From Eukaryota sp. GEM-RC1 (taxonomy: Eukaryota): a stretch of 64,000 nucleotides of DNA. Every line of letters begins with the position of its first letter. Within the stretch, counting starts at the first letter, position 1. The notes under the pieces were generated by a model, which had not been told where the DNA came from, ran no database searches, and saw only the letters and a program-made list of their open reading frames with translations. The translations under genes were made by a program, and so were the position numbers. Of this stretch, positions 14,000 through 64,000 are shown one piece after another. The stretch spans positions 1,922,001 through 1,986,000 of the forward strand of contig JAUFOQ010000006.1 in assembly GCA_040285855.1 (NCBI GenBank), read 5' to 3'.

Positions 14000-16344
14000 A
14001 TGAATGTCAGAAGTTGCAGAAAGTTTCCCATTCATGTTTTCGATTCATGTCTTCCTCATTCTGTATCTAGTGTCAAGCAAGGAGATCCTGGTGGTTCTTT
14101 CTTTTTCTAATCAGCGATTCATGAACTTCTTGATAAACTCAAAAACACGAAACTCAAAAAACAATGTAGTATATGAAGCTTTCATTGCTTCCCTGTCAAG
14201 TCTTCTTGTGATATAATCAGAAGCTGCTGAATCTTGTGGTACTACTGGTCTGCAACTGAATGAATTAATAACTATAAAATTGCATTGGTGAATTACTTAT
14301 CGTCTGGTCCCAATACAAGCAACCTTAAATACTATACAAACATACCCTTTACTGTGTTTGTATTGGAATCTGCTTGTATTAGGGTCCTTTAAATCTCTCT
14401 TTTGGATGATCAAAAACTAGTCATGAAGAGCACCAACAATGGATTGTAAAATAAATAATGTCAATCAGTAGTCTTTAAAAGACCCTAGTCAACCATCAGA
14501 CCAAAAGAAACACCAAAACCTTCATCAATAACTTACTGGTCAAACAAGGTTTTCATTAATCTCATTACTTATAGACCAATCTTAGATGAAACTCTTTACT
14601 GAAGCGAGTGCCTATAGAACAAATACAATTGGAGTAAAAATTGAGAAACGTCATCAGTGTTTCCTAGAAATCTACATTTGAATGTCTTGCTTTTAAAATT
14701 CTACTTGGCTCGGCTGCTTAAAGAAGCAGAAGGCTTAAAGAAAAAAATCTAGCTTTCGCAAACTTTTGAAGTACAGTTCTACAGTTGCTTTGATTAACCA
14801 AATTCCACAGATTTATGGATTGTTGTTGAATGATCATCAATGGATCACAACATTCAGACTTCGATGTTTCTTGTGGCCCTCTAATTTACCCAATGATCTT
14901 CAATGTGAATGTGGTAAATTAGTTGCTTTTTCTCACCTTTTGAGTTGCAATCGTTTCATTACTTTTAGAACTTGCATTCATGATGCTGTCATAGATCAAA
15001 TTCATGCAATGTGTAAGTCCTACACATTCGAATCTTTCATTGAGCCACTGTTGAGATCACTTGAAATCAATCATTTAAAAAATAGTGATTCTGATGAGAC
15101 TTTTGGTAAAAGAAGAGCTGATGTCATCGTTCAATCAGTCAATGATGAACTAACGGTTGTTGGTGTGATTACTGTGGATGTTTGCAAAAAAAGTGCATTT
15201 TTATGGATGCTAAAAATGAAGTGTCTCCACTTGATTTTTCAGAACAATTCAAGAGAAACAAATATGATGTACCCTTGACTGCTCTCAAACATACTAGACA
15301 TGTTGAGTACAAATTACGTTTAAATTATTTGTTATTTGAAGGATCAAGAATGGGTAATTAACATGCATTTGAGATTGGGGCTCTGGCCTAATAGCTTACT
15401 TCAACAGTCTAAGTGTATCTGTAGTGCTTCAAAGCCTGCTTCACTTCGTCACATTGTTAATTGCCCAAATTTTATTCATATGAGATCTGTTCTTCACAAC
15501 AGTATTCGTGATCAATGTCTTTCTTTCTTCATTTAAATCAAACAGATTTCATGGTAAAATTGAACCTCTATTGTCCGCATTTTCTAATTCTTTCATTCGT
15601 GATAATAGTCGTGGTGATTTAATTGGTCCATGGTTAAATTGTAAAGAAGTTGTTTTGGATTTCACCATTCTTGAGTGGATCCATGTAATGATACTGCTAG
15701 TAGTAAAATATTGGATGACCATTTTTTACCTTTGCGTAATGTTGAAAATAAGAATTGTCTTCTTGTGATTATATTTCTAAATTGAATTCACAAAGACATA
15801 ATGCTTTGGTGTTTCAACCGTTCGGTATTTCAATTTATAGGAATATGGGTTCTGCCGCTCAAACGTTTTTGTCATCTTTTAATCAATTGTGTTGCGAATT
15901 TGACCATTAGTTCTTAGAGGGATCGTTTTGTGTTTTCTATATTTCGTTCAATGTTTCCAGTATTTCGATGGAATTTTGAAGAAACTCTTTGGGGTTCAAG
16001 ACCATGTCATGGAATAGTATTGTTAATTTTGTTTACGTCTTTAGATTTTTTGTATCTTTAAGAGATAAAAGATTATTTTAATTATGTCCTTTTCCAATTT
16101 CAATTTATGGTCGACTTGGTAAAGATGCTCTTTGTTTTCTCTCTGATTTTGAGAAAGTTGTCAAAAGAGAATGAACCAGAAATTTGATTTTAAGTTTTGG
16201 TTGAATCGTATTGTCTTTACAATATTTCAAACAATTCTGATTATGATTTCAAAAGTTTTAGTAGCTCTGAGTATTTTTTATGAAAAAAAAGCTGATGTGA
16301 GTTTTAATGGCATTGAATGTTGCTTTACTAATATTCAGTTCTAG
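14000..16344 (+). mobile_element. Degenerate CRE-like non-LTR retrotransposon (copy A) with RT remnant, interrupted by copy B
   Basis: RT-like VKQGDPGGSFFF.SAIH at ~14072-14122 and GLQLN. ORF 14766-15278 has CECG..HLLSC, IHDAV, IEP, RADV and TVDV. The sequence resumes after 16084 as CPFPISIYGRLGK...WLNRIVF. Confidence 0.7.
15317..16079 (+). mobile_element. 5'-truncated CRE-like fragment (copy B) nested in copy A
   Basis: LKDQEWVINMHLRLGLWP, CICS..HIVNC, LHNSIRD, KIEP and RGDLIGPW. Flanked by an AATTA duplication (15312-15316, 16080-16084); removing it restores EYKL|CPFP in copy A. Confidence 0.7.
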
Positions 16345-16944: not shown

Positions 16945-18255
16945 TTACCTCTTCTCTTCTTTCGAGCTCCTAGTTCTCTTTGCTACAGGTGTCTTAACTT
17001 TGGAAGACGTCTTAGGAGTACTCTTACTACTGGAGGTACGTTTAAGCTTAGTGTTGTTATTACTAGACCTGTTTCTATTGTTACGAAATAAATCTAAATT
17101 GTCTAATTTTACAAAGTCACTATACGCTTTGGTGTTCTTGATGTCCTTGATGGGAACTGACGAAGTATCACCACCAAACCAAAGTACAGTGCAGAATTCA
17201 CCATCGGGTGTATCAAACCTATCTAGGATCTTAACCACGATGTGTTCTTCAGAATCCCCAGAAGCAATTGCTCTGTGGAGATCATGATCAGCAGGCAGAT
17301 CTGATTGAAAGATCTTACATTGATGAATGCTAGTCTTACTAACATATCCAGTGATCAGATTCTTTAATGAAACAGAAGATTTTGAATCAACTGAGACAAC
17401 TAGAAAAGGTCCAGTGTAGTTTCCATGGAGCTTACTTGTTTTGGCGACCTTTAACACAAGATCTCCTATCTTAAATGATTGACTAGTGTTAAACTTCTTC
17501 TTAGGCTTGAGTACTGATTGACGATCCTCTGCCTTTTCTCTTTTTTTCGTTAAACGTTCTAGTTTCATTTTAATGTCGTCAATAAACGAAACAGTCTTTG
17601 TTGATTTCTCAACAGCATCTAGTAAACCACTAGGATCTGCACCAGGACTTATGTCACTACCAAACATCAGTTCGTAAGGAGTATGCCCAGTTATTGAACT
17701 CTTTGTTGCGTTGATCTGCAACTGTACAGTTGGAATGTACGTTGACCAATTGTCATAATCATTGAAGTCCACAAGGAGACGACGTAGGCTTTGCAGAACG
17801 TCTCTGTGACGTCGTTCCACCAGTCCATTACTCTGGGAGAAATGAGGAATCGAACGACTTACTTCAATCGCCAGTAGGTTACATATTGCCTCGAAAATAG
17901 CATTGGCAAACTCCGTACCATTATCACTATGGATACAAAACGGTATTCCAAAGATAGCAATCACATCCCACACAAGACGATATGCTACTTCTCTACTGTT
18001 AAGTTCTTCGAGGGGGCTCAAAATGGTGTATCTGGTGAAAGAATCTACAAACACCAATAGGAATTGGTTTCCATTTTGATCTTTTGGAAGTGGACCGATT
18101 GTGTCGACATTAAGTCTAGCAAAAGGTCTATCAGCCCATAGAGAACCCGTCGATTCAATTATCTTTTTAGGAATAGGTGCCGTTTTCTGACACGCAGGGC
18201 ATTGCTGAACATGTTTTATCATGTCAGCTTTCATACTCTGGCCAAAAGTAACCAC
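16945..18255 (-). CDS. Integrase with C-terminal chromodomain-like region (3' part of pol, +1 break near 18240)
   Basis: HHCC (H..SGHP / CPAC); DDE (VDTIGP, HSDNGTEF, GLVERRH); EEHIVVKILD...GEFCTVLWFGGDTSSVP chromo-like segment. Confidence 0.9.
   Translation of the reverse strand: MVTFGQSMKADMIKHVQQCPACQKTAPIPKKIIESTGSLWADRPFARLNVDTIGPLPKDQNGNQFLLVFVDSFTRYTILSPLEELNSREVAYRLVWDVIAIFGIPFCIHSDNGTEFANAIFEAICNLLAIEVSRSIPHFSQSNGLVERRHRDVLQSLRRLLVDFNDYDNWSTYIPTVQLQINATKSSITGHTPYELMFGSDISPGADPSGLLDAVEKSTKTVSFIDDIKMKLERLTKKREKAEDRQSVLKPKKKFNTSQSFKIGDLVLKVAKTSKLHGNYTGPFLVVSVDSKSSVSLKNLITGYVSKTSIHQCKIFQSDLPADHDLHRAIASGDSEEHIVVKILDRFDTPDGEFCTVLWFGGDTSSVPIKDIKNTKAYSDFVKLDNLDLFRNNRNRSSNNNTKLKRTSSSKSTPKTSSKVKTPVAKRTRSSKEEKR
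16948..16963 (-). promoter_or_regulatory. Polypurine tract
   Basis: GAAAGAAGAGAAGAGG on the minus strand, separated from the 3' LTR only by the integrase TAA stop. Confidence 0.85.
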
Positions 18256-21200
18256 TATTGAACAATATTTCCAAACTTCGTTTCTTGTTTGGGTGTCCTG
18301 ACTGGACTAAGCCATGTAGCATGTAAAGAACTTTCTTTATTAAGCTAGATGGAATCAAAATCTTGTTCTTCGAGTTCATGTATACATTACTCATTGTACA
18401 CAAAGTTGAACCATTAAACAGTTGATCTCCTTGTTCTATCGCTTTAGATTGTTCTGACCTAATGGTGGATAACCAAGAGTCAAATAAAGGAAGTTTATTG
18501 TCTGTTGAGAGATTACGAAGGCACTTGATAGCTAATACGTTGGAGTCACGTGGAAGCATCTCAACATAGTCTGCATCATCATAAAGTAAGCCTTCATGAG
18601 AAAGGGTTAAATCACTTTTGATGGAAAGATTTGAGATCGTTAAAGATTTGATTGTTTCAACTGGGCGACGGTCAATGACACGTGATAACATGTCAGCCCA
18701 TTGATTGTTTGTACCAGCTACATGCTCTATCTCAAAATCAAACTCCGAGAAAATTGGAATCCATCGTTTGACAATACGATTCTTCTCTGGAGCTGAAATC
18801 AGATAAGCAAGGTTCCTATGATCTGTAAAGATCGTCAAATGCCTACTTAATAGGAAACCTTCTAAACTAGATTCGGTCAGAATCAAGAGAATGGCATACA
18901 GCTCTTTCTGGATAGCTGCCCAATTCTGTTGACTATCATTGAGTAAACGGCTATAAAACGATACAGGTCTAACTCTACGTTCTTCTAACGGAGTTCCTGG
19001 AGGAGCTGGGGGATTTTCTTCCTGCCAGATCACACCACCAACATCAATGTCGGATGCATCTGTGGATATGATAATGTTCTTATCAGTATCAGGTAAGTCT
19101 AAAGCCATATGGTTTATTATTTCGGTTTTAATTTTGTCTAATAAAGCATCATGGTCTTTTGTCCAAACAATTTTCTTGGGTTTACCACGAGTCAGTTTAT
19201 TGATTGATGCAGTCAAGTTCGAGTAGTTTGGAATCCATTCACGAACATAATTTAAAGCACCAAGTAAACTTCTTATCTCGGGTAAAGTTGAAGGAGCAGG
19301 TAACTCAATCAACGCCGAAACTCTTTTATCATCTATGCAACGGGTTTTATTACAAAAGTTGCTGCCGAGAATCTTATTAGGATGTCTAGAAGTGGTGAAC
19401 CTACACTTCTTCAATCCAATCCGTACTCTAAAACGTTCTGCTCGTTCCAGTACTAGATTTATTCTTGAAATAAACTCTTCAAAGGTATTGCCTACAACAA
19501 TTATATCATCAATATAAATGAAAACACCTTCGACATTGAAAATTTCCATCATGATGTTTTGAAAAATTGCTGGTACGTTTTTCAATCCAAAACATGCTCG
19601 TTTAAAGCTAATAGACATTCCAGGTATAGACACACTGGTCTTCTCGACATCTTCTTCAGCTACATTTAGCTGCCAGAATGCTTTAGGAAGGTCAAGTGTT
19701 CCAATGAAATTAGCTTTCGAAAGAAACTCTAGAACATCACAGATCCGTGGTAAATTTGGTTTCACCGGTCTGGTATTAGCATTAATCCCATCAAGTCCAC
19801 TGAAATCTCCAGTTAAACGAGGCTTACGGTGATCATTATAAACCACCAAGACTATGGGACTGCTGAACTTACCAGTTGATGGTACGGCCCATCCTTGTCG
19901 TATAAGTTCATTAAAAATTTCTTCGGCTATACGCTGTTTTTCAGGGTTAAGCCTTCTAGGAGGACGAAATACAGTGACACTTTCATCATAGAATGGAATT
20001 GTCATGGGTGGACAATCAATACCATCAGGATGTATATCTTCTGAAAAGACTTGTTTGTATTTACTGAGTAGGCTCAGAAGCTCCGTTCTTCTTGTAGAAT
20101 CATCCAATTCTATCGTGCAACCAGAGTTGTCAATGGTTTCTTCAAACAGATCTATATCTAATTGAGTGTTACCGTACTGATCAATAGTAAAATGTGTTGA
20201 ATTTGGTTTTATTGAACATTTTGATTGAACTCTATTAATCGAAATTGATGGAGACCTCATTCTCTCATCAAATTCACTCTCTGCATTGAGAATAGTGCTA
20301 TGTTCTTTATCTAATCTAATGACTAGACCATCATCCGAAAGCAACCCCAGTTCTTCTTGCAAGTCTCTACCAATGAGGAGAATTTTTGTTCCTGGAACTA
20401 CTGGTAGAGTATGCTTAACATGAATCTGGTTGGCCAAGCTGCCAACGTTGAACGTCAGAACACCTATTGCACTACCTAAGGAAGTAGCACGAATATTATT
20501 CGCTGAGATGTATTCAATACAACTATCAGTAGATGTCATCTCACAGTAGCGTATCAAATCTTGAGAAATGACTGAACATGATGCTGCTGAGTCAAATTCT
20601 CCTACTACTGGTACATTGTTGATTAACAATCGAATACATAAAGGACCCTTACCTTTAGAATCGAACCCTAGGTTCTGGTTGAGACTACGAATTGTTTCAA
20701 CAGATGATGTACTTCTACCCTTGCTTGAATGTGTGTTCAAAGCAGCCAATGGGTTCATGTACTTATGAGGTGTAGTGTGATTATCTCTAGATGTGTTATT
20801 TGTTGCAAGTCTGAAAATATAGTTATTCTGTTGTTTATTGGAACTAAAACGACGACTAAAAGATTGACTACGACTATCACCTGATCTACGTTTGTTGGAC
20901 TTTTTATCACTGTCAGATTGAGGTTTTGATCTACAATCAGTGGAGTAATGGCCCATTTTTCCACAGTTAAAACACTTAACCGTAGACTTAACATCTCCAG
21001 GTGTACCATGAGATTGAGAATGGGGCTTGTTTGCGGTATTTGGTCGATTTCTTCGATTTCTAGAAGGAAAACGACTGGAAGGAGTGGATAAGGACTTCAC
21101 AGCTGTGGAACGCTTGTAGGTAGTCCAGATCGATCTAACTTCTTGGAAGAATTGAGGTAGCTTATCATCCTCAGTTTTGAGACGATGATCCCATCTAAGA

Positions 21201-22429
21201 ACAAGTTCATTCAAAGCAATAATTCCTTTGTCAGGATTCAGTGTTTCTAACATCAACTCGGCTACTGTGGAAGCAGGGACCTTTGTTCGGACAGTTTCAT
21301 CACTCGACGTAGCTATCATCGCCATGGAACATTTGAGAACGCTAATTACGCCACGGAGGTATCGGTCAAAGCACTCAGCAGGGTCTTTGGAGCTACCCAA
21401 TCTTATTTCTTTAATTGCATCAATGGCTGTTGTAGTTGATGAGTATTGACTCTTGTTAATCAATAAACGCCAGATGTTTTGTTCAAGTACCTGACTACTG
21501 TTGTTAGTACCAATCAAATCTAACATTTTCCAATCATTCAAAGTTGTTTGATCTATGAAATGACTAATGCCAGCTGGATCAATTTCACACAATGCTGTCC
21601 TAGCAAGGTCGAATTTGTTCAAAGGAGTACCAATCCAGAGGTCATAATCGAAACGTTCAGTTTGTTTTCTGACATGAATGGCCCAATGAAAGAAGTCATG
21701 AATAAACTTCACAACCTCATAACTAGTGTCGTTTTTCAAGAACGGCTCTCTGTCTTTTTTCTTCTTGATCTTCTTGGGAGGAGTCACACCAGATGAGAGA
21801 ATAACAGAATCATGAAGGACATTGTCAGGACGTTCATCTTCAGAGGATTGACTAAGGTCGATGTGATTTTCAATCGATGGAGACAAATCAGGAAACTTGT
21901 TTGATTGTCTATCTCTTTCTGCTTTGGTTTTGTTGGCTTCAGCAATCAACGCGTTTCTATGTCGAATTTTCGGTTCTTCGAGTTCTTTTTTCGACATGAC
22001 TTTTGATTCTTGGTTCAAATCACGAGTGAAGTTCTCGGTTACACGGTAAACGTTTTCATGTTCTTCACTGGCAACAAACCGATCAACGTCTCCAAATTCT
22101 CCATCAAACTTTCTAGTTGAGAGAATATCACGTGAACCATCAGTGAAGCGGTCAACAGATTCTGGACGGAAAGGTTCACCAGGAACGTGAGCAGAAAGGC
22201 GAGCAGTTTGACGTAGCTCTTCAGGCTTGGGAAGAAGTGTACCAACTTCTCGTAAAGCACCATGAGCAACAGGAAGGACCTTTTGAGATCCACCAATGCC
22301 ACTAAACTGTTGGACAACCACAGAACCTTCATCAGGAACAGCTAAGGTCGTGTTTGATGCTTCCAAAGGTTGACTGTGGAAGGTTTTCATATCTATGACC
22401 AACGGGAAGGTGTCTAGAACTAACAGCAA
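18224..22429 (-). CDS. Gag-protease-RT-RNase H polyprotein
   Basis: CFNCGKMGHYSTDC zinc knuckle; FDSAASCS protease; LDLPKAFWQ, FGLKN and YIDD RT; TDASD, KELYAI and FTDHRNL RNase H. Confidence 0.95.
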   Translation of the reverse strand: MLLVLDTFPLVIDMKTFHSQPLEASNTTLAVPDEGSVVVQQFSGIGGSQKVLPVAHGALREVGTLLPKPEELRQTARLSAHVPGEPFRPESVDRFTDGSRDILSTRKFDGEFGDVDRFVASEEHENVYRVTENFTRDLNQESKVMSKKELEEPKIRHRNALIAEANKTKAERDRQSNKFPDLSPSIENHIDLSQSSEDERPDNVLHDSVILSSGVTPPKKIKKKKDREPFLKNDTSYEVVKFIHDFFHWAIHVRKQTERFDYDLWIGTPLNKFDLARTALCEIDPAGISHFIDQTTLNDWKMLDLIGTNNSSQVLEQNIWRLLINKSQYSSTTTAIDAIKEIRLGSSKDPAECFDRYLRGVISVLKCSMAMIATSSDETVRTKVPASTVAELMLETLNPDKGIIALNELVLRWDHRLKTEDDKLPQFFQEVRSIWTTYKRSTAVKSLSTPSSRFPSRNRRNRPNTANKPHSQSHGTPGDVKSTVKCFNCGKMGHYSTDCRSKPQSDSDKKSNKRRSGDSRSQSFSRRFSSNKQQNNYIFRLATNNTSRDNHTTPHKYMNPLAALNTHSSKGRSTSSVETIRSLNQNLGFDSKGKGPLCIRLLINNVPVVGEFDSAASCSVISQDLIRYCEMTSTDSCIEYISANNIRATSLGSAIGVLTFNVGSLANQIHVKHTLPVVPGTKILLIGRDLQEELGLLSDDGLVIRLDKEHSTILNAESEFDERMRSPSISINRVQSKCSIKPNSTHFTIDQYGNTQLDIDLFEETIDNSGCTIELDDSTRRTELLSLLSKYKQVFSEDIHPDGIDCPPMTIPFYDESVTVFRPPRRLNPEKQRIAEEIFNELIRQGWAVPSTGKFSSPIVLVVYNDHRKPRLTGDFSGLDGINANTRPVKPNLPRICDVLEFLSKANFIGTLDLPKAFWQLNVAEEDVEKTSVSIPGMSISFKRACFGLKNVPAIFQNIMMEIFNVEGVFIYIDDIIVVGNTFEEFISRINLVLERAERFRVRIGLKKCRFTTSRHPNKILGSNFCNKTRCIDDKRVSALIELPAPSTLPEIRSLLGALNYVREWIPNYSNLTASINKLTRGKPKKIVWTKDHDALLDKIKTEIINHMALDLPDTDKNIIISTDASDIDVGGVIWQEENPPAPPGTPLEERRVRPVSFYSRLLNDSQQNWAAIQKELYAILLILTESSLEGFLLSRHLTIFTDHRNLAYLISAPEKNRIVKRWIPIFSEFDFEIEHVAGTNNQWADMLSRVIDRRPVETIKSLTISNLSIKSDLTLSHEGLLYDDADYVEMLPRDSNVLAIKCLRNLSTDNKLPLFDSWLSTIRSEQSKAIEQGDQLFNGSTLCTMSNVYMNSKNKILIPSSLIKKVLYMLHGLVQSGHPNKKRSLEILFNSGYFWPEYES

Positions 22430-23561
22430 CGTTGTGATACGGATTGCTCAAGCTTTGACAATACCACGCTGAGTAAGCATACGTAACGTATCTACCATCG
22501 GCATCGAAACTAGGTTCCAATGGTTCAATCAAGATACCATGACGAGGATCCCATGAGTAATCCGAGGGATAACGATACGTATCCACAGCATCTCCATCAT
22601 ACAAATCACCGAGAAAGCGTTCAATAACTTGAGGGGAAATACCTGGAGGAACGTTCCTCAACAGATAGTGCCGTCTTTTAGGCATACGGTTGCGGATGAC
22701 AGGATGCCAAGGAGCGAACTTCGCCAAGTGCCACATGTCGTAATCAGAGATACCAACGCTGTTGTCTTGTGGACTTACCCAGCTATTTGGGATAGCATCC
22801 TTATGGAAGTGCTGTTCCTCAATAGACCCAACTAGCTCTTCGACTTTGTTGCCTCGATCTTCTGGAGAGAGACTCATCTTACGAGCTAGAAGTTCCTTTT
22901 CAACAAGAAGCTTCTGTTCTGCTTCGAGTCTTCTAGACTGCTCTTTGGCGAGAGATTCCTGTAACTTGCGAATCTCTTCAACCACTTCAGTTGACCTCTT
23001 TTGAGGAACTGGAACAACATCGGGAATGCTTTCTTTATTAAAACTATTTCTACGAGGAAGAATAGGGAGAGGAGACGCTGTTACAACAACATCATGAATC
23101 TCGGAATGCGGAGTACTGCTACTGTCAGCATCGCTTACTCTATACTTCTCTAACAAGCTTGGGATACGGTCTGAAATTACAGAGGGAGTATCCAAACCCA
23201 CTTCGCCATCCTTGCGGGAAGACGAAGTCCTTCCATCCTCAGATGGGCATCCACCTTCAGGTTGAACATCTACAACTCTACGAGAAGTAGATTCACCAAC
23301 CTCAGGTGAGATTTCCGTCACCTCCTTGTGGGAAGTGGGGCTTCTATCCTCAGATAGGCATCCGTCCTCAGACAGGCATCCATCCTCAAATGGGTCACTT
23401 TCAAAGTCCGACGAGTCAACTGACTCTTCTGTCTCAGGAACCAATGGCTCCTTTCGACGGGAAGACACTTTGGAGCTAGACTTAGATCTAGTCAAAGGTT
23501 TGTTTCTACGATTAGTTTTGTTTCCCGCTTTTGGGGGGTTAGTAGTCCTTTTCTTCACCAT
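22332..23561 (-). CDS. Upstream ORF1 of the gypsy element, unknown function
   Basis: ~409-aa ORF with ATG at 23561, just inside the 5' LTR boundary: basic N-terminus, acidic EDGCLS repeats, coiled coil and an aromatic-rich C-terminal domain. Overlaps gag-pol, which is in the +1 frame. Confidence 0.8.
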   Translation of the reverse strand: MVKKRTTNPPKAGNKTNRRNKPLTRSKSSSKVSSRRKEPLVPETEESVDSSDFESDPFEDGCLSEDGCLSEDRSPTSHKEVTEISPEVGESTSRRVVDVQPEGGCPSEDGRTSSSRKDGEVGLDTPSVISDRIPSLLEKYRVSDADSSSTPHSEIHDVVVTASPLPILPRRNSFNKESIPDVVPVPQKRSTEVVEEIRKLQESLAKEQSRRLEAEQKLLVEKELLARKMSLSPEDRGNKVEELVGSIEEQHFHKDAIPNSWVSPQDNSVGISDYDMWHLAKFAPWHPVIRNRMPKRRHYLLRNVPPGISPQVIERFLGDLYDGDAVDTYRYPSDYSWDPRHGILIEPLEPSFDADGRYVTYAYSAWYCQSLSNPYHNVAVSSRHLPVGHRYENLPQSTFGSIKHDLSCS

Positions 23562-23577
23562 CTTGGACAATAATTAT

Positions 23578-49248: not shown

Positions 49249-49666
49249 CATAGTACGGAAAACACCGGGCGTGTTTGAACGCGGTGTTGAGTGTGAACGT
49301 GTTGTGAACGTGTTGTATTTTTTAAAGGGGTAGTTGCGGTGTTTTGAGTTGTTGATTGTTTCCAAGCTGTTCCATGAAAATAATCTCAAATATACGAATT
49401 CTTTACTGCATAAAAGGTGGTGAGACCAAATAGAAACTCTTTGGAGTCGTAATTGATAATCAGTGATTGAACCCCAAAACAAGTTATCCACTAAAGTAGT
49501 TAGCGTTTCAAGAAATTTAAGATATGAATATATATTTAAAGAGAGAATTGGATGAAAAGTTTATGTGGTTGGGTGGCGGTGTTGTAGCGGTGTTCAACAC
49601 GGTGTTGAGTGTGAACGTGTTCTGAACGTGTTGTAACCGGATGAACACGTATTTTTCCGGACTATC
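49249..49666. mobile_element. hAT-type MITE, 418 bp
   Basis: 8-bp TSD GTATGAAT (49241-49248, 49667-49674); TIRs CATAGTACGGAAAA / GATAGTCCGGAAAA; subterminal CGGTGTTGAGTGTGAACGTGTT direct repeats at both ends. Confidence 0.85.
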
Positions 49667-51582
49667 GTATGAATCATTACGTAAACCGTAACGTAATTGG
49701 TGTACAAAACACCAATTCTGTTTGAACGCTGTGTGGAATTTGATATATGGTTGAAGGTGTTGTATTATTTCTCAAGGAGTTGTAGTGTTTTTCTTTGTTT
49801 GTTGATCAAGATATTTGATTTTTATGAGAATAGACCAACTATGGGAGATTTACTAGTGATAAACTGCACAATAATAGATGAGAACAAAACTAAACCGCAT
49901 GTATTCGGAATTTTTGAGGACGGATTACATACGACATTTATACACCAGACCAGTTAGCCGTTGAATATGTATAGTTCATTGTGAGCGTCACTTTTGGTAG
50001 ATAGCTACTACTGAGACATCACATTTAGCGAGATGTGATGAGTTTCAATTCAGAAGAGCTACAAAATTCATGTGTTTTATCGCCAGTTGAGAAGATGATT
50101 ACATATACCAAAACCAATGTCACTAATACTGTTGGATTCTCTAGTAACCTTTATAAATCTGGGGTTTTCATTTTAGTTGCATTTTAGAACCCCATTCAAG
50201 AACACCACTACGAAGAACACTTTTTCTGTTTTCTACCTATCAACATACATTCTGTAGCAAAACATGCTAGTCCCTATGTCCCATTGTTTGTGAGGACCCT
50301 TAATCATGAAGAACCATGCTTCAAACAACAAAGCTCGTGTTATACATTGCTCTCAGTACCTGACAAACGTTCCTACATAGATCTAGAACTATACAATGCC
50401 TCATCGGTGCCACAGATATGGATATGAGTGTTGTCATCAAGTTTGTGTATCCACATTATGTTTTGTCCTCTGTATATGTCTGTAACAATACTAAAAACCA
50501 ACAACATATTTGAGGGTCCCTATCTTATATAAAAACAGACATTTTTCATGTTATTTAACAGATATCTATGGGTCTTTATTGAAAAGATTACAAGCCGATA
50601 TGGATTAGAGTTGCCGTTGACTGGACTCGAGTCAAAAACTCTAAGTACACTCGGGCACAGACTCGAGTCGCGCCGATCGTCACACACACAAACCAATTGT
50701 TCTCAAGTGAAGAAGATGTTGACCTCTTTGTCAACTTCGAAAGGAGTTGGGGTATAAACATTGAGTACAGGAACCTGGAGTACATAAATAAGAATGTTCC
50801 TTGTCAGGCTACTGAAAAATTGTACAAACTAAGAGACTGACGAGATGAAAGAGTGGGCGGAGGAATGTTAAAAGGTTGACCACTGTCTTCAGGAAAGATC
50901 AGAGGCTTCTTACATGGAGGGGAAACAATTTGATGGGCTACAACATGGAATTACGATGAGCATAAATCTGCTTGAAGGACGTAATGAAGAGAGGGGGGGA
51001 ATGGTTGGTTGCTCTCAGTCTTGAAGACATGAAAGCAGGGGATTTAGAGAGGGTAGATCTTGAGAAGGGTAGATCTTCTGAGCGAAATAGAAGACTTGAA
51101 ACGATAGAAGATTTCTGAGATCTCGGAAACAAACTGTAAGGAACAAAACTCTTTCGGGAAGAATCAGTGTAAACGGTACAATGAATCCAGTCTTCAGGAT
51201 TGTATTAAGCTTCAATAAGTGATGAAATCAAGACCAACATTCGGATGACAAGATGTCAGTTGTACTTACTGATAATTCATTCAAGATCTCATCAGCACCA
51301 GTGAAATCGTTGGTTGAGAGAAATGGAGGATCTTCTGCTTCGGCCGAAGATGCTGAAAGGCGAAAAGACGAATTGAATCGAACATGTAGAGATGGTGTCT
51401 TCTTAGTAAATGTAGATAAGACATCCCAAAGTAAAATTAAAAAGAAAGATATATTGACAAGATCAACCTATACATTGTCCATGTAGAGGACACTGAAAAG
51501 TGAAAAATGAAGACAATCGTCAATAAATGTCTTGACTGACATGACACTGTAGACACATCTATAAATACCAACAACCCACAAA

Positions 51583-52127
51583 ATGGTCCATTTTTTTGCT
51601 CACATGTCGATGTTCATTGATTCGACGGCTATGAGAGGCCTGTTTTTGGTGGGAAAGTCATCCTATCAAATCAGGTGGAATTCTACAGAAGCAACTTCTG
51701 TAGATATCTTGTATCCATACAGCCTGGGTGGGACCGGGCGGCAATATGCTATTCAAAGGCATCATTGTTCAAGCAAAACCCCAAGGAAGGCATTTTTGGT
51801 CATTGATCCAATTCAATCCAAATTTTTTATTTTTTCGAAGTCGAGGGTTTTTTATGGGAGTATGTGTGTTGTTTTTGGCAGTCAGGCCTATCATTTTTAC
51901 ATGCCCAGCATGGTGATAGAACCACCAGGGCAACACACTGCTTTCCAGCCCCCAAACTTGCCTCCTTGTAAAATTCAGTGGATCGGTGGTGGTGGTGGTG
52001 GTTTTGGTGGTGGTGGTGAAATTTTATTGAAGTGTCGTTTTTGCAAATTTCTGTCAGTTTTGATTGTAGACTGCAGTTCAAAATTGATCTTACGTCTGAT
52101 GGTGATGTGGAATCCAATCCAGGTCCA
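51583..52127 (+). CDS. Putative leader polypeptide (Gly-rich) ending in a 2A-like peptide
   Basis: ATG at 51583 follows TATAAATA (51560). ORF 51583 joins the 2A frame if one base is added after 52020 (e.g. T-run 52022-52025). No recognisable domain. Confidence 0.35.
52086..52127 (+). other. 2A/StopGo ribosomal skipping peptide motif DLTSDGDVESNPG|P
   Basis: Exact D(V/I)ExNPGP consensus (52104-52127) with the upstream DLTxDG typical of viral 2A peptides; same strand as, and 128 nt before, the exonuclease-Fanzor ATG. Confidence 0.8.
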
Positions 52128-52255
52128 CAATCTAATCCCAATTCTGATCCCATCGGTACAAGATTGAGTGTTCCTTTTATTCGACTTGATGATTCGACTT
52201 CCATTGTTCCCCCCTGTTAAAAAAAAGTCGAGTTGATAGTAGTTCTAGTCCTCCA

Positions 52256-55200
52256 ATGTCCAATCTCGAAATTTTAGCAAGAGTTGCCAAAAAGGCTCAA
52301 GTTGAGGCCAAATCGCGGAGAGCTCCCTTGAAAATTAATGGACAACGCCTGTCTAATAGAGTTTTTCCTGCTAAGAAATCTTGTCTCAAAGCTTTGAGGA
52401 AAATTAAGCCACATGACAACAACGAAAAACAGAATTTGATTGAATTCGGATGTGCTCAAGAACACCCTAATACTTATGCTCTTCCAAAAATTATGTCTAT
52501 TGACCTGGAGACAATGCATCATGATGATGAAATTCCAACAGCTATTACGGAGGAATTTAGTAAGCTTCGAGGAAAGGAATCGCTGAAGTTAAAAAAGATG
52601 AATTCAGAAGAGCATGATCGATGGATTGCTAGCCAAAAAGTTATGTCAGTTGCATTAATTTTTGGCCGTTTTAATGAAGAAAATTTTTACGAAGAAAAAT
52701 CAATTATTATCTGTGTCAACCTTTGTGCAACAAACCTACCTTCTCCAATTGAATGCAGTTTATCCCCAAGAACTGAAATCTATGTTGTGCCCAATGAGTT
52801 GGTCCTGCTCCATATATTGATGGACGTGATTCAAGATTACCAGCCAAATTTCATTACTGGTCACAATATTATTGGATTTGACTTCAAAGTTTTGGAAAAG
52901 CGTTTCCAGTTTTATCAGTTCCCATGGCCTGTTAATGTCCAAGAATCCAACCTTAATCCTTTATCTAAAAACTGGCGTGAAGTTGTTAAAAATAAACACG
53001 GATACTTGATACTTGATACTTTATTGTTTGCAAAACGTTTTCTCACAATGAAATTTGGAAACGATTTACCATCTCTTACACGAAATCTGATACACGAATT
53101 TTGTCTCAGACTTAAAAAGGAAGAACTTGGAAATCTTTTGCCCATTGATTGTTGGTGTGAAAGTACACTGGTATCTCTCTTAGTTGATTACAATTATCAA
53201 CACGCCAACTTAACTTTAAAACTTTGTATGCTCTTTCAGAGAGAAAAATTTATTCTTCCAACTTATAGAATGGTAAAGTCTACTCTTCCACGAATTTTGA
53301 AGCATCGTGATGTCTTTGAAAACATTGTGCAGCTAGCACCTCAATTTCACGAACTTCGTCGCCATACCCTACAGTGCCTGCAATTGTTTTTATCAGCAAG
53401 ATTTGAACGTGGCGAAGCGTTACCTGAAATTACTGAACAAATGATTACGTCTGTAATGACTCGAATAAATTATCTCTGTGCCCAATTTTATGGTCAGCCC
53501 TATAAACGGCCCAGTAGTGCAATTGATGCGGACTTAGAACGATTTGTCATGGGAAAAGCACAATTCGACAGCAACTCAATTCACAAGGGCTATCGTATTC
53601 AGTTAGAAGCAAATGAAGGCCATAACTTTCCAATGTTTCCTCCTCAAGGCTTCTCTAGACCACCAGAATACATTGCTCCAGTACTCCTGTGTAACATTAA
53701 CAACAACTTGAAACTCCACTTTGAAAAACATATTAATCGTTTCATTAACGTATATTTTGGAAAAAACAGTCTGAAGAAGAAATTTCAAATTTAATTAAAG
53801 AGCTGCCAAAAGAAGAACGACCTGATTGTCAACAAACTTTAACTTTGTATCGTTTTGCTCTTCGACAGATTAAAGACATTTTTACTGCTGAATCTGTCGA
53901 TAACTTCAACTTGTTACTTTCAAATCAATTTTGCCTAGAAAAGTTTGAAGAAGATTGGAAGGATAAAGCAGGGGAAAAAGGAATGACACCTCACGAACAA
54001 GACTTTTTATACGATGCCTTTATTTACCCGTATGTCGTTGAAAAATTTGAAATTTTGCAGAGATCACCTCCTTTTGAATTAAGAGTGCTTCGACCATTTA
54101 CTAAAATTTTGGAACTCGAAAAAAAGCCTCAATTATTCATGCCGGCAGCCATAACTATGAATCGTTATGTGAAGGAGAAAGAAGCAGCGGCTTTTCATTG
54201 GTTTCCCGCTGTAACCACGGTAATCCCAGGCTACTTTCCTATTGATACTAGAACTTTGTGGAGTATCGTTAGGCAAAACAAAAAAACCAAGGATCTGAAG
54301 TTCATGAACAACCAGGCTGAGGTGACCAAGTTCAAACCAAAAGACCAACATGATTTTTGGAAAATGTTTGTAAACTTCGATTTAAAAGAATTCAAAAAGA
54401 AAGATTATGTGTTCAACAACATTATCCACAGTGACGGTCAAAACTGTTCACTTGAGTTAGTTAGGCGTGACTTTGCTGGTGAAAAAGAGGTAAGGATGAT
54501 TTACAAGGAAAGATTAAAGAAGTTTATTGTAAAGACTTGAGAGCAGAAAAATTTACAACAAAAAAAGTAGTTGTCTGTGACCCTGGAAAAAGGGATCTAC
54601 TTTATTTTGGTGTAAGAAATGAAGAACAAATTCAAGAAAACAAGTGTAATTGGCTGCGACTGACACAATGCAAATGGACTGTGGTAGCAAGAAAGCAACA
54701 ACACCTGCTAAAAGGTGCCAGAAGAAAGTTCAAAGTTAGACCATCAAGAAATAGATCAAATCAAGATTCTGAAAGTACTCCACCGCTCACAATTGAAGAA
54801 ACTGATAGCTTGCTTTCAGGATTAAGTCCAAAATCTGCCACGTTTGCTGATCTCGAAGCTTGGGTCCAGGCCAAAATGAAACAAGTGACGTCAACCGCTT
54901 GGTTTTACTGTTCTGCCTTATGGCGCATCCAAAAAATGCGTTCCTACATCCATAAGCAGAAAGTAGAGTCCTGGTTGTTGAAGTCACTCGAATCGACTTT
55001 TGGACGAAGAAGAGAAGAACTACTGATCTGTATGGGTGATTTTGGGGCAAATGGTCAAGTAAATTTGAAACATCACAGACCGACAAGAGGAATCGGATGG
55101 CGGTCTTTCTTGAGAAGAAATGGATTTGAAGTCGTTTTATTGAATGAAAAGAAAACGTCCAGTTGCTGCCCAGATTGTGAAAGTGAGGTGAAGAAGTTCC

Positions 55201-55404
55201 ATAAGATCGAGAATCCAAGACCCTACAGAAGAGAAAAAACTCCAAAAGTGCTTTTGTCATGGTCTACTTGAGTGTCGAAGCGAGAATTGTAGAGGATCAA
55301 GCGAGAGAAAGTATTGGAATCGTAATCAGCTTGCGTGTTTGAATATGTTGAGAATAGTAGATGGGTATAGAGAAGGAAGAGGAAGACCTGAATATCTCTC
55401 GTAG
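52256..55404 (+). CDS. Family-B DNA polymerase 3'-5' exonuclease domain fused to Fanzor1 (TnpB-like RuvC), ~1,050 aa reconstructed
   Basis: ExoI SIDLET, ExoII GHNIIGFD, ExoIII YNYQH. Then Fanzor1 blocks: MVKSTLPRILK, NNLKLHFEKHINRFINVYF, WFP..TVIPGYFPIDT, IHSDG.CS, RuvC-I VCDPGKRDL, GDFG..PTRGIG, RuvC-II LNEKKTSSCCPDC, HGLLEC..C, RuvC-III WNRNQLACLN. Three single-base breaks in A/T runs (~53761, ~54482, ~55252). Confidence 0.88.
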
Positions 55405-55545
55405 TTAGTAACGTAGTATAACTTTCCCCGGAGGGAGTATGCAGAGATGTATACTGTATTGCCTTCGGATTTTGTAGAGTAATTAAGGAAGATGTGTGAA
55501 AACAGTCCTCGGACTGAGTAGAAATGCATTTGAAATGAAATACAC
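55405..55545 (+). ncRNA. Putative Fanzor omega-RNA scaffold (locus 1)
   Basis: Directly 3' of the Fanzor stop. Hairpins AGTATGCA-GAGA-TGTATACT and CAGTC-CTCG-GACTG. Block ATGCATTTGAAATGAAAT(A/C)CAC is shared with the second Fanzor locus. Confidence 0.7.
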
Positions 55546-55679: not shown

Positions 55680-56269
55680 CATGGAACGCAAATGTTCCGT
55701 ACCGCGGCGATTTTAGGCGTACCGTACCGTACCGTACCGTACCGTACGTACGTACGGTACATGTACCGGTACTGTACTTGGGACCGACTAAAATCAACCA
55801 TTACTGTTTTGAACATGATTATCCAATGTGAGATTTTAACAGTTACCATCGTCATAAATTCTACCGTTAGACATTGCTCAGGATATCAAAATCCTGATTG
55901 TCACATCTATTCAAATTTAGGGTACGTCATTTGCTGACCACAACTTCCCCAAAATGAGTTGTTTACGTAAGAACCTCAGCAATCGCTCGAAATCAACAAT
56001 AGTAGTAGCTTCTTCGAATTGCAATGCATTTATTGAGTGGCTACGACGGAATATAACAATGATACAGGGCCCAAAAACCCACAGATTGGATTTCTAAACG
56101 ATCAGATGATGCAGTATCAATTGGCACTAGTACTGTGTTTGACTAGTGAATCTCAAAAAATAGTATTTGTAAATCCATTTCGATCATTCATAAATAGGCT
56201 TTTTATAAAATCAAAGGACATCGGTACGGATAAAATAAATCGGTACGTACCAAAGATTTGCGCACATTG
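55680..56269. mobile_element. Degenerate hAT-type MITE, 590 bp
   Basis: Weak TIRs CATGGAACGCAAAT / CAATGTGCGCAAAT; flanks GTATGAAT / TAATGAAT (6/8); left (CGTAC)n repeats mirrored by CGGTACG on the right. Confidence 0.5.
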
Positions 56270-59759: not shown

Positions 59760-60602
59760 AGTATCTAAACTATGATCCTTCTGTCCATCATCGAACAACT
59801 TACCTAAAATTGAATTATAATATCTGTGCATTGAACGAAACAACGCAAAAATATCCTACTCAACCAAAAATTTTCATTGAAAACTTTACCGTACCCAGAA
59901 CACAATTTACCAAAGGAAGTTAAAAATCTTGTGCAGCTGGTCCAATATTACCGTATATCGACATCGCAAAAGGTTGAAACACAAAAGAATTGTACCTGTC
60001 AACATTCAACTGGTTAATTAAGTGACAGTACTTTGTTTTTTTTCCTTTTCCAGCCACTTCAAGAGCAGAAAAATCATCATCAAAAATTTTGGAAATTGAT
60101 CTTGAATTACAAGGATCAACAGTCGTGAAATCCATGATAATTTCCTGACAAGATAACCAAGGACCAATCAAATCACCACGACTTCTATCAACTTTTGGCT
60201 GATCAGAAAGATTAGCAAGTAAAGGTTTAATTTTTCCATGAAAACCATTAGCCTTAAACATATCCAAACATGTATCCCGGATACCGTTGTGAATAATTGA
60301 TCTAAAATGAATAAATTTATGACAGTTAACTAAATGATGAAAATTTGAAGCCTTTGAACGACCACAAAGACATGGAGAATGCTTCAAAAGACCTGAAGGC
60401 CATAAACCTAACCTAAGTCTCATGTTTATACACCATTCATGATCCTTAAGATTAAAACAAAATTTTCTTGACCAACGAGAAACAAATGAAGACGCAGTGC
60501 TTGAAGAAATATCATTCAAAAAGCACAAAAAGCGGGACTCTTAGTGCGGGACTCTCTTGCCAAGCTAATATATGTAGAAACTTAATCAGTGAGTAAACAC
60601 CC
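59760..60602 (-). mobile_element. 3' fragment of a CRE-like non-LTR retrotransposon, abutting the Fanzor locus 2 end
   Basis: ORF 59920-60528: WCINMRLRLGLWP, CLCG..HLVNC, IHNGIRD, RGDLIGPW and FQPFAMSIYG. Upstream TATTAGCTTGGC (ISLA) matches the 464-2140 copy. The 5' boundary is uncertain (60570-60602). Confidence 0.75.
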
Positions 60603-60706
60603 GTGGATTTCATTTCAAATGCATACACCTATATGCACTATCACCACAGTTTGACACATTGTGCCACTCATTTGCAAGCCTTTTAGGACGAGCTAACTTA
60701 TAAGAT
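60603..60706 (-). ncRNA. Putative Fanzor omega-RNA scaffold (locus 2)
   Basis: Directly 3' of the Fanzor stop. Hairpins ACTGT-GGTG-ATAGT and TGCATAT-AGGT-GTATGCA; shared 18-nt block at 60607-60624. Confidence 0.7.
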
Positions 60707-63700
60707 TCAGGATTCCGGTTCTTGATTCTCTACTTGTGAGTCTTTGGGTACATCTCTCTGGGCCTTACTTGGGCAATTTCTTCTATCATGTCCTGGTTGT
60801 CTACATATCGTACATGTACGAGGACTTTTAGGAGGCACAGGTCTTTGAGGACACTTTGCCGTTGTATGGCCTTCCATATGACAAAACTGACACTTACTCA
60901 CACTCTTCTTCTTGGGAACCTGATCTGTAATCCCACCATCCTCGATAGTTATTGTTTGAGATTTTGGTCTCTCGAGGACAGCAGGTCTACCTTGACCTTG
61001 GATAATTCCATTTACAATGTTATAAATGTTAATAGCAGAGTTGAAGTCTCTATTCCAGCGGACATGACATTTAGCACACTGAACTAAGCCCCATGGTGAG
61101 ACTTTGTTGCTCTTCAATCTTTCTTTCATGAATGGCAACTGTTTGGTCCATTCATCATCAAAATTACGTTTCACAACATTGCCTAATTGATTGTGTTCCA
61201 TCACTTCTTTTTTCAATTTCTTCTCCTCCTTCTGTAACTTCTTCTTCCACAGAGGATCAATGACTTTGACAAAGTCAGGATTGGAACAGATACCTTCCTG
61301 GTCTTCAGCAGCACAAGCAGAGCAACATTTGCTTGTCATAAATTCATCAACTAAGAAAACTTTAAATCCAAATTTTCTTAGTAAGTTTCGAAGAGTAGCG
61401 CCTTTTACTGTACTTGCCTTACCCCTTCTTCTTCGGAATTGAGTGTCATTCCAATCCCCAAAACCAACAACGACTTCATTGGGATCACCATATTGGAGAG
61501 CTAATCTGTGGACCAAGTTTTGTTCCCTTCGTTCTTTTCTTGAATATTGGGTAAGGCGTCTACGTCTAAAAAATTTTTCTTCATAAAGGCCTTCTGTTGT
61601 AGCAGGTATTTGTTGAGTTGGTCCTTTCTTAGGTAGTTTCTTTGATGGTCCTTTCTTAGATAGATTCTTTGATGGTCCTTTCTTTTGATGTAATCCTTCA
61701 GCAGTTGCTTTTCCAGTTGTGGTTGATCTCATTAATGCACAGAAAACTTCATTGTTAACCATGTATCTTGAAAATTCTTCCAATTTACATGATTTTCTTC
61801 TTGGAGTATCAGAACTGTAGGAATCCAGTATTTTCTGACCATTCCACACACTCTTCTCAAACTCAGTTGAGTACCTCTGTAATCGTTCACTTTCGGTCAA
61901 TTTGACAATTCCTCTGTTGCCACGTTTCCTTTCAAGTTTTTTGAAATTTCGTTTTTCCTTTCGTTCCTTTTTAGCTTTTTTTCTTTTTTTGTTTCTTTGT
62001 CAATTTTTTTGGAACTGTGATGGCTGATTTTTTCTTGGTTTCCATCTAGATTTGTTAATATCTGCCTTTCTCTCCCCAGCAGTGTATCGGAACACCTTCC
62101 ATTTGTCACGCCTTTTCCACTTTACAGGTTGTGGGTTAGTGTCTTGCTTCCAATCATTTAATTGTTTTTTCATTTTTTCAAACTTCCCCTTTTCTTAGAA
62201 GATAATGGAGCAATCTTTCTTTTTCTAACTAGGGTAACTGGCTTGGGCTCAATTTCCTTCTCACTTGAGGAATCATCCTTCTCAACTGAGGAATCAATAG
62301 ATTGTTCATTGGAAGTAAGATCAATTTCTGTAACACAAGCATTGGCCATTCCATTTTCTATCAATTGTTTTGTTTCATCGACTTCAAATTTCTCACACGC
62401 CTCTTCCTCATCAGTTTTTAAACTGGCACAATACATGAGATCATGTTGGTTGGGGTCAACAGCAACAATTCTCTTAGATTTTAAATTCAGCTCTTCAATT
62501 TCATCTTCACTTAAGGAATCAATATAACGCTCATTTGAAGCAAGATTAACTGCTATAACATTTTCACGGGCATTTCCATTTTCATCAAGTAAATCTTTCC
62601 TCATCATCAACAAACTACAACTTAAACCGTCTGACAAAATTGAAGTGTATTTAAAGTCATAGGATAATGACTCTGGAATAGCCTGAGGTTTTAATACTGA
62701 ATTCCAAATAGGTTTCCGTACATCATTATAGTTATAGGGAAGATCCCTACAAAATATTTCGTGAAACCATTGCGTATCGAACCTGATATGATTTGGAATT
62801 AAAGATTTAGACAACGGGAAAGGATTGTTTGCTCTTACACCAGGACAATAGTCTTCAATGAGACGGTTCAAATATAATGCATGACTTAAAAAGTATAACG
62901 GATCACTCTTTTCGGCATAGTAGATCGTTTTCTCCATCTTTCCTTCAAAATAATTAAACAAATAATTGAAGAATAATATACTCAAGTGAGATTCCGGATT
63001 GGTAAAAACTTGCTTGTCATCAAAATTAATTTTGGAAATTTCACCATTAATGATCAATTCTCTAACTTCATTAATCCTTTGACAGAGTTCTTGTCTTTGG
63101 GTTTTGTCAGTAAGAGCTTCCATTCTCTCTTTCTTTTGAGTAACCAAGTTAAAGACTTGAAAAACATACTCATGAAAGTGTTGGCTCATGTTGTTCTTAT
63201 AATTAGTAATAATTTCGGTTGCAACGTAACCGAGAGGGTTAGACAAATATAGTCCACTTGGAAACACGATCCTATCTCTGCCAACCATTTCACCAGCAGT
63301 TTCTAACAGAGGGATGTAGTTTGATAGGAAGTGTTGGGCGAACTCCTTCTTTGTAGTTGTTGTTTTTGCATTAGAAATGATGTTTTGTAAAGAGTTTTCC
63401 ACAGTTTTAATATGATCAGTACTGTTGAAAAATTGGTGATTTGGAATCCACATCATGGCCAACAGTTGTGACATTGGAGTCAACTTAAAGTAAGCTCCCC
63501 AGTCTGGTAATTCAAATTTGGTAGTTTGAATTTTAGTAAAAAGGTCAAGTTCAGGTTCACCAGTTTCATTTTCATCACCGTCTTCTTCTAAAATATGGCT
63601 GTCTTCTTCTGAAATTTCGGATTCAATTGTACGATCCAAACCAAAATCAGGGTCTGAAGTCACAGGCAATTCAGTTTCTTCTTCTAATTGTTGAGGCACA

Positions 63701-64000
63701 AACTCTTCACTTAAAACTTCTGTTTGTTCAGTGTCTGAAACTTCTGTGTCTGTTTCAATTTCTTCTTTAACAGTGAAAATGTAGTCAGATGGAGGTAGTA
63801 TCTCTTTGACCTTGTCGAAAATTAGAGAGTTGTGAAACTTAGTTACGAAAAAATGTTTCAACATATGAGTACCACGAACTCTGACTTGATGAGCTCTCTT
63901 AGCACAAGACTCCATCCAATTGGCTTTAGTCTTTGATACAACATTATCTAATCGTTTCTTCACTGTCTTCAATGGTGGTCGTTCTCTTAATTTTTGCTTC
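60707..64000 (-). CDS. Fanzor1 (TnpB-like RNA-guided RuvC nuclease) with two C-terminal CCHC zinc knuckles; 5' end outside window, ~1,100 aa or more
   Basis: KTVKKRLDNVV, YVATEIITNYKNNMSQHF, FPLSKSLIPNHIRFDT, ILSDGLSCS, ERYIDSL, RuvC-I VAVDPNQHDL, VFRYTAGER, FGDW, RuvC-II VDEFMTSKCCSAC, WGLVQCAKC, RuvC-III WNRDFNSAIN. Breaks fall in poly-A Lys-rich tracts (61900-62200). Confidence 0.92.

Follow-up and report, generated by a model that had tools for sequence, protein, structure and literature searches.

Fanzors are eukaryotic, TnpB-like RNA-guided DNA endonucleases. The solved Fanzor1 proteins SpuFz1 (8gkh), PpFz1 (9cf0) and GtFz1 (9cer) have a common body of WED, REC, RuvC and zinc-finger parts and share a relocated RuvC-II glutamate. 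A Fanzor1 of this kind is encoded in a stretch of 64,000 nucleotides from the protist Eukaryota sp. GEM-RC1 (assembly GCA_040285855.1, contig JAUFOQ010000006.1, positions 1,922,001 to 1,986,000 of the forward strand), which is referred to below as the window and numbered from its first letter. At positions 52,256 to 55,404, the Fanzor1 is fused to an N-terminal domain resembling the proofreading exonuclease of family B DNA polymerases (PolBs). The exonuclease-Fanzor1 fusion is a multi-copy gene family across three protist genomes, those of skoliomonads, and the copy in the window is a damaged member of it.

The exonuclease-Fanzor1 family

In the window, the exonuclease and the start of the Fanzor1 lie in one open reading frame (ORF) on the forward strand (52193-53794, first ATG at 52256), in which FQREKFILP at 53234 is followed by TYRMVK, the start of the Fanzor WED domain, at 53261. 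A first-pass annotation, made from the letters of the window alone, had placed the motifs of a DEDD-type exonuclease in this uninterrupted frame, and its coordinates are correct. It had likened the N-terminal region to PolB exonucleases and had held that the fusion depends on no indel correction; the former agrees with a match of the ORF to PF03104 (DNA_pol_B_exo1; E-value 1.8e-16, 60.7 bits, with the cut-off at 23), and the latter with a junction that is open in one frame. The same Pfam match settles its first reservation, that the region might not match PolB exonucleases; its second, that all other members might lack the domain, is answered by the relatives described below, in which the fusion recurs with conserved catalytic residues. 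The match of the window Fanzor to PF07282 is weak (E 0.0077, under the cut-off). Fanzor1 homology covers the whole body, with WED/REC and RuvC recognized both by profile and by fold: positions 272-940 of the family profile match SpuFz1 (E 6.7e-71), PpFz1 (3.7e-68) and GtFz1 (2.6e-27), and positions ~82-264 match PolB exonucleases, the best of which is Pol delta (E 2.6e-11). The polymerase domain PF00136 is absent from the window ORF and from all family members scanned, and present in the controls P0013-P0016 and P0029.

A phmmer search with the window ORF against 1.84 billion representative proteins gave 32 matches at E <=0.001. The top 12 are family members or fragments of them; the weaker matches include true PolBs, which align in the exonuclease part only, and plain Fanzors, which align in WED/REC only. 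A word-based search had picked out no longer relative among 4,928 candidates, a miss of sensitivity, since the HMMER search did find relatives. Annotated as hypothetical, the family proteins come from Eukaryota sp. TZLM3-RCL, TZLM1-RC and GEM-RC1 and are encoded on many contigs, and the proteins closest to the window copy (91-92% identity) bear the GEM-RC1 name. TZLM1-RC presumably belongs to the genus Skoliomonas, like the other two. The RCL and GEMRC isolates of Skoliomonas are free-living anaerobic metamonads, whose genomes were assembled from nanopore reads and corrected with Illumina data (10.1101/2023.05.03.539051).

Beyond these genomes, scans of viral contigs revealed no family member: 102 pattern matches led to two loci, both Fanzor1, without an exonuclease-fused ORF in their ORF lists. 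On one viral contig (L001, 2032-5560), two transposase-like ORFs, which we take to be of the Tc1/mariner type, lie directly upstream of a plain Fanzor1. None of 162 matches in a metagenome protein scan is a family member, a phage collection gave no match to the family, and a protein atlas returned plain Fanzor-like clusters only (score 0.76, under the lead threshold). The blank viral, metagenome and phage scans are weak evidence on the range of the family.

The catalytic sites were mapped in 57 family proteins by pairwise alignment to the relative P0046. All 26 relatives that reach ExoIII run gap-free through the linker into the Fanzor; the ExoIII aspartate is present in each of them and the tyrosine four residues earlier in 25. 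The aspartate of ExoI is found in 30/30 and its glutamate in 29/30 relatives, and the ExoII aspartate in 29 of 30 mapped rows, the exception being P0063, which has no exonuclease domain and was aligned spuriously with a low score. In nine of the 57 proteins, one predicted chain contains the full set of eight mapped exonuclease and RuvC residues. Because many rows are near-identical copies, six subfamily representatives, which are 17-49% identical in the exonuclease domain, provide a fairer test of conservation; of their 220 ungapped columns, only 23 do not vary, and the four exonuclease acids all fall within these. The linker between exonuclease and WED is gap-free in the window copy and eight relatives and ends on the strand where plain Fanzors start.

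In an unrooted tree of the WED/REC region, which left out the second Fanzor of the window, nine exonuclease-bearing rows are split from seven plain Fanzors by a branch with support 97/94, and in an unrooted exonuclease tree, seven family rows are split from eight PolBs by a branch with support 95/97; both trees have few outgroups. Three of the 11 PolB rows had been removed from the latter, as their motifs were not found, and no host polymerase was included. A single origin of the fusion is likely from the fixed linker and these trees. Pol delta is the exonuclease domain's best match by sequence, but Pol alpha, Pol epsilon, the PolB of African swine fever virus and E. coli Pol II tie by fold.

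An AlphaFold2 model of P0046, built from 41 sequences (predicted local distance difference test, pLDDT, 76.8; predicted template modelling score, pTM, 0.59), divides in the same way. Residues 1-243 resemble PolB exonucleases (Z 15-16, root-mean-square deviation 3.2-3.7, 164-183 residues aligned) and have no aligned part in any solved Fanzor1 chain, and residues 248-940 superimpose on residues 18-631 of SpuFz1 (Z 24.4, root-mean-square deviation 6.4, 551 aligned); the solved Fanzor1 folds reach Z 18.7-24.4 against the model. A single-sequence fold of the window protein was uninformative (pLDDT 33).

The RuvC-I aspartate is conserved in 23/23 and the RuvC-II glutamate in 19/20 relatives. The third catalytic residue is an asparagine in the window, which reads W-N-R-N (asparagine codon 55324-55326), and in all 19 relatives covering the site, which belong to two subfamilies. 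The strict motif published in 2013, which ends in RD (PMC3627910), is therefore unmatched by the family; GtFz1, an accepted active Fanzor1, likewise has an asparagine as third catalytic residue. The D-E-N triad of GtFz1 is active, and the exchange D606N even increases the activity of SpuFz1 (PMC11423790). Since GtFz1 cuts DNA with an identical triad, the RuvC of the family is probably catalytically alive, and a reading of the asparagine as decay was rejected on these grounds.

The window copy, its leader and the element ends

The first-pass annotation had placed RuvC-I to RuvC-III and the zinc finger after three single-base breaks, and tblastn with relatives locates frame switches near 53765, 54485 and 55255 (Table 1). 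It had also put ExoIII at the right position. It overlooked that the aspartate of this motif is replaced, and it overlooked the RuvC-III asparagine and an upstream 2A-like motif. The window ExoIII reads Y-N-Y-Q-H, with a histidine (53201-53203) in place of the aspartate of the relatives. Among the sequences compared, this histidine is found solely in the window copy, whose close relatives do not cover the site; it probably cripples the exonuclease of this copy. As the window copy lacks the fourth exonuclease acid and its frame is broken, the case for a fusion enzyme rests on the relatives.

All four frame switches lie at runs of four to eight identical bases, three of them being one base short and one being one base long; runs of at least four, five and six identical bases occur in 52%, 24% and 6% of 30-nucleotide windows. 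The switches fit residual nanopore error. A very large surface-protein-like gene near the element (24680-48706, minus strand), with about 12 tandem repeats carrying laminin-G/lectin domains, also contains several frame switches, and four of its 12 repeats have an identical single-base loss. Inherited slippage explains the window frame switches and these losses equally well, and the common point at which the close relatives P0003 and P0036 stop fits inherited lesions, too.

Table 1. Features of the element in the window
Feature	Position	Strand	Basis or remark
Perfect 10-bp hairpin	51682..51704	.	One of two hairpins with a stem of at least 10 in 64 kb; possible left-end feature
2A-like (StopGo) peptide ending GDVESNPGP	52086..52127	+	A frame switch separates it from the exonuclease ORF downstream
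Frame switch, 2A frame versus exonuclease frame	52209..52226	+	At C6 and A8 runs
Basic leader, poorly conserved	52256..52480	+	Translation; ~91% identity to P0003; possible nuclear localisation region
PolB-type DEDDy 3'-5' exonuclease domain	52481..53245	+	PF03104; alignment to relatives; P0046 model; charged helical insert after ExoI
Exonuclease motifs	ExoI D52502/E52508; ExoII D52880 (N..FD 52865-52882); ExoIII Y53189 (site 53189-53203)	+	
Short fixed-length linker, exonuclease to WED	53246..53260	+	Gap-free alignment, window and eight relatives
Fanzor1 WED/REC region	53261..54480	+	Frame switch at A6 run 53761-53766; family profile against SpuFz1, tblastn
Fanzor1 RuvC-I to RuvC-III and C4 zinc finger	54483..55404	+	Stop 55402-55404
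RuvC residues and zinc-finger cysteines	RuvC-I D54579; relocated RuvC-II E55146; RuvC-III N55324; Cys 55167, 55176, 55273, 55288	+	
Late frame switches	A5 run 54482-54486; T4 run 55252-55255	+	tblastn of relatives (~54485, ~55255)
Candidate omega-RNA scaffold and right end	55405..55545	+	Ends in 22-nucleotide motif 55524-55545

GDVESNPGP (52101-52127) is the sole such motif in the six frames of the 64 kb. It agrees with the 2A signature -GD(V/I)ExNPGP-, which is by itself insufficient for skipping (PMC3708506). A 2A-like motif is found in the N-terminal part of 15 relatives, ten of which have the canonical D-V-E-x-N-P-G-P core and five a histidine for the glutamate, and P0006, P0008, P0043, P0045 and P0047 combine it with the exonuclease within one predicted protein. 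Some relatives possess one or two Ulp1/C48 protease domains between the 2A-like motif and the exonuclease; P0045 and P0049 exceed the Pfam cut-off, five others fall under it and further relatives show the His/Cys motifs. The window copy has no protease. The architecture is thus a 2A-like peptide, an optional Ulp1 protease, the exonuclease and Fanzor1. Near-identical leaders stand on distant exonuclease subfamilies (2A and protease in P0006 and P0053, 2A in P0023 and P0045), which suggests that N-terminal modules are swapped among family members. In P0039 (2027 amino acids), a DEAH-type helicase (PF00270, PF00271) is joined to the exonuclease-Fanzor, which may be genuine or may reflect two gene models run together. 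Upstream of the exonuclease ORF, a TATA-like sequence and an open frame of ~195 codons without a Pfam match (51559-52167, plus strand) overlap the 2A motif in another frame; the frame is perhaps a leader upstream of the 2A peptide. The frames at 50941-51483 have no Pfam match either.

The motif at the end of the candidate omega-RNA matches 60603-60624 on the minus strand in 21 of 22 bases, downstream of the second Fanzor1 of the window, and an 18-mer of it has a second match in the window where 0.03 would be expected by chance. Since a terminal repeat forms part of Fanzor1 guide scaffolds (PMC10711439), the 22-nucleotide motif is likely to mark both the right end and the end of the scaffold. 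Folding supports the candidate omega-RNA only weakly, with z -2.49 at 55425-55545 and -0.43 to -1.21 in three further spans, and it has no match in Rfam. Four metagenome loci with the right-end motif were set aside as chance matches, since none has a protein match to the family, and a candidate left terminal repeat at 50166 was not accepted, its best match scoring 13 points over 19 nucleotides. Family copies are many, scattered over different contigs and partly decayed; the family is likely mobile, and both mobility and homing are read from copy number alone.

The second Fanzor1 (60707-64000, minus strand) is distant, has a D-E-D RuvC triad and a frame switch near 62170 at T6 runs. Its RuvC-I is followed by an acidic insert, and its C-terminus bears two CCHC-like zinc knuckles (PF16588, E 1.4e-4, under the cut-off); its start lies beyond the window, and an upstream exonuclease is possible. 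Just past its right end lies one of three similar-looking fragments (1265-2140 and 14739-15278, plus strand; 59920-60540, minus strand), two of which are 48% identical. None has a Pfam match, and presumably they resemble the zinc-knuckle and restriction-like endonuclease end of non-LTR (long terminal repeat) retrotransposons. Positions 16945-23573 (minus strand) are taken up by an LTR-type retrotransposon whose zinc knuckle, reverse transcriptase, RNase H and integrase are encoded in frames that overlap. The element itself is flanked (49259-49799 and 55709-55795) by short non-coding repeats (43 nucleotides at 93%) and a palindromic GTAC-rich tract, which are possibly small mobile elements.

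Proposed function and alternatives

We give an even chance to the reading, drawn from sequence comparison, that intact copies are RNA-guided cut-and-trim enzymes serving element maintenance. The cut in the non-target strand falls after base 16-17 in SpuFz1 and after base 14-17 in GtFz1, downstream of the 5' target-adjacent motif (TAM). Such a cut would leave the TAM-side non-target strand displaced and single-stranded with a free 3' end, and a single strand with a free 3' end is the usual substrate of a proofreading exonuclease. In SpuFz1, H21 and T22 touch the first base pair between guide and target (R-loop) beside the TAM (PMC10432273), and thus the exonuclease would be attached where the R-loop starts. 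Tethered there, it could shorten the displaced strand in the 3'-to-5' direction toward the TAM, thereby blocking simple re-ligation of the trimmed break. Trimming would also remove the bases from TAM to cut, a non-homologous tail that is absent from the left junction of the element-bearing allele; once this tail is gone, the 3' end could serve as the primer from which the element is copied into the empty site. The 2A-like peptide would free the enzyme from any leader translated upstream. The fuller proposal of a natural editor, which cuts, pares the displaced strand to the TAM, leaves a break primed exactly at the insertion junction and is expressed via 2A, is more tentative and falls somewhat short of an even chance.

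The first-pass annotation had suggested a cut-and-resect enzyme. The natural fusion and its conserved catalytic residues agree with this idea; resection in recombination, however, runs 5'-to-3', and a 3'-to-5' exonuclease removes 3' ends without making the 3' tails of recombination, so that cut-and-trim is the better term. Precedents exist for a PolB exonuclease acting on DNA ends in repair: T4 43Exo influences the homing efficiency of the td intron (PMC2988022), and yeast Pol delta removes as many as 40 nucleotides from the 3' end of an invading strand (PMC10868807).

Several points weigh against a cut-and-trim function. Neither a left end, a target-site duplication nor a transposase was found at the element, and the sequence upstream has no convincing inverted counterpart of its right end. 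Besides the ExoIII histidine, the window copy carries four frame switches; its relatives come from gene prediction and include many near-identical copies, and RuvC-II and RuvC-III are covered by two subfamilies and the window only. The mutual orientation of exonuclease and Fanzor parts is not reliable in the P0046 model, as reflected in its pTM of 0.59. Fanzor homing is an extrapolation from bacterial TnpB. Finally, fusions with TREX1, TREX2 and T5 all impaired the engineered Fanzor2 evoMmeFz2 (PMC12923547), and an attached exonuclease is therefore not automatically useful.

Both activities might instead mutate or degrade targets such as excision scars, competing elements or invading DNA, without restoring the element. 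This would suit the fact that trimming of a 3' end produces a 5' overhang, an end that of itself does not promote strand invasion, and exonuclease fusions are used to raise the indel rates of RNA-guided nucleases (background in PMC12923547); the many scattered, partly decayed copies, however, look selfish rather than domesticated, and the window shows no guide array. Such a destructive role is rather unlikely. The exonuclease could also act apart from the Fanzor cut, as an accessory domain of the transposon comparable to the DEDD or DnaQ domains of other elements and the Ulp1 protease here. P and piggyBac elements are known to have DEDDh domains (PMC3627910) and LTR polyproteins to have DnaQ-like ones (PMC6338049), and the N-terminal modules of the family are freely swapped. 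The protease, however, is optional and far from the Fanzor, whereas the exonuclease is joined to WED by a gap-free linker in nine sequences with no 2A motif between them, and 0/26 ExoIII-covering relatives end there or join another domain; an independent accessory role is distinctly unlikely.

It is very unlikely that the exonuclease matures the omega-RNA by trimming the 3' end of the guide, or that the RuvC is silent and the protein works as an RNA-guided exonuclease. There are RNases among the other DEDDy enzymes, and according to the literature a read-through transcript supplies the guide as its 3' end, but the sequence and fold matches of the domain are to DNA-polymerase proofreading domains. 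The first-pass annotation had offered an RNA-guided exonuclease as an alternative. Such an enzyme with a silent RuvC could draw on the asparagine shared by all relatives covering the site; it is made less likely by the same asparagine being active in GtFz1 and improving SpuFz1 (PMC11423790), and by the conservation of the RuvC-I and RuvC-II residues. A one-off dead chimera, or an artefact of assembly or gene prediction, is scarcely credible and at the family level already refuted: the window copy is damaged and the relatives are predictions on nanopore-based assemblies (10.1101/2023.05.03.539051), but in the window the junction lies in open DNA; it is also spanned by a copy of 92% identity (P0001) and is collinear in distant subfamilies of three genomes.

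If the cut-and-trim reading and its editor version are true, the family would offer an editor that nature has already assembled, with its own bias on repair, and a direct way to learn whether homing is driven by Fanzors. A proofreading domain held at a fixed distance from WED in deeply diverged subfamilies suggests that what becomes of the cut 3' end is of consequence for the element. For editing, the nine intact-looking predicted proteins are available as a natural, co-evolved pairing, in contrast to the artificial fusions that impaired one Fanzor2.

Comparison with known systems

A natural Fanzor-exonuclease fusion was not found in the titles and abstract openings among the matches listed, a scope beyond which most subscription papers lie, and the word exonuclease is absent from the main text of PMC10432273, PMC10530073, PMC10711439, PMC3627910, PMC11423790 and PMC10691335, whose supplements, with many Fanzor sequences, lie outside that count. 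Accessory DEDD domains are already known in other transposons; what is new is the fixed fusion of an exonuclease to an RNA-guided nuclease. Compared to the solved Fanzor1 proteins, the family adds an N-terminal PolB exonuclease with a short fixed linker, a 2A-like peptide and optional Ulp1 proteases. Its exonuclease has the ExoI, ExoII and ExoIII motifs and the fold in common with PolB proofreading domains; unlike family B DNA polymerases, it comes without a polymerase domain and contains a charged helical insert after ExoI. The likeness to T4 43Exo and yeast Pol delta lies in the proposed removal of 3' bases after a site-specific break; these, however, are host enzymes acting in trans, whereas the family exonuclease is built into the nuclease. 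A 2A motif of the form GD(V/I)ExNPGP near the N-terminus of an ORF is also known from the APE-type non-LTR retrotransposons L1Tc, Ingi, CR1, L2 and Rex1 (PMC3708506), but here it precedes a chain of protease, exonuclease and Fanzor, and no reverse transcriptase was seen. The engineered TREX1, TREX2 and T5 fusions likewise unite a nuclease and an end-processing enzyme in one chain; they are artificial and impaired evoMmeFz2 (PMC12923547), whereas the fusion described here is natural and conserved.

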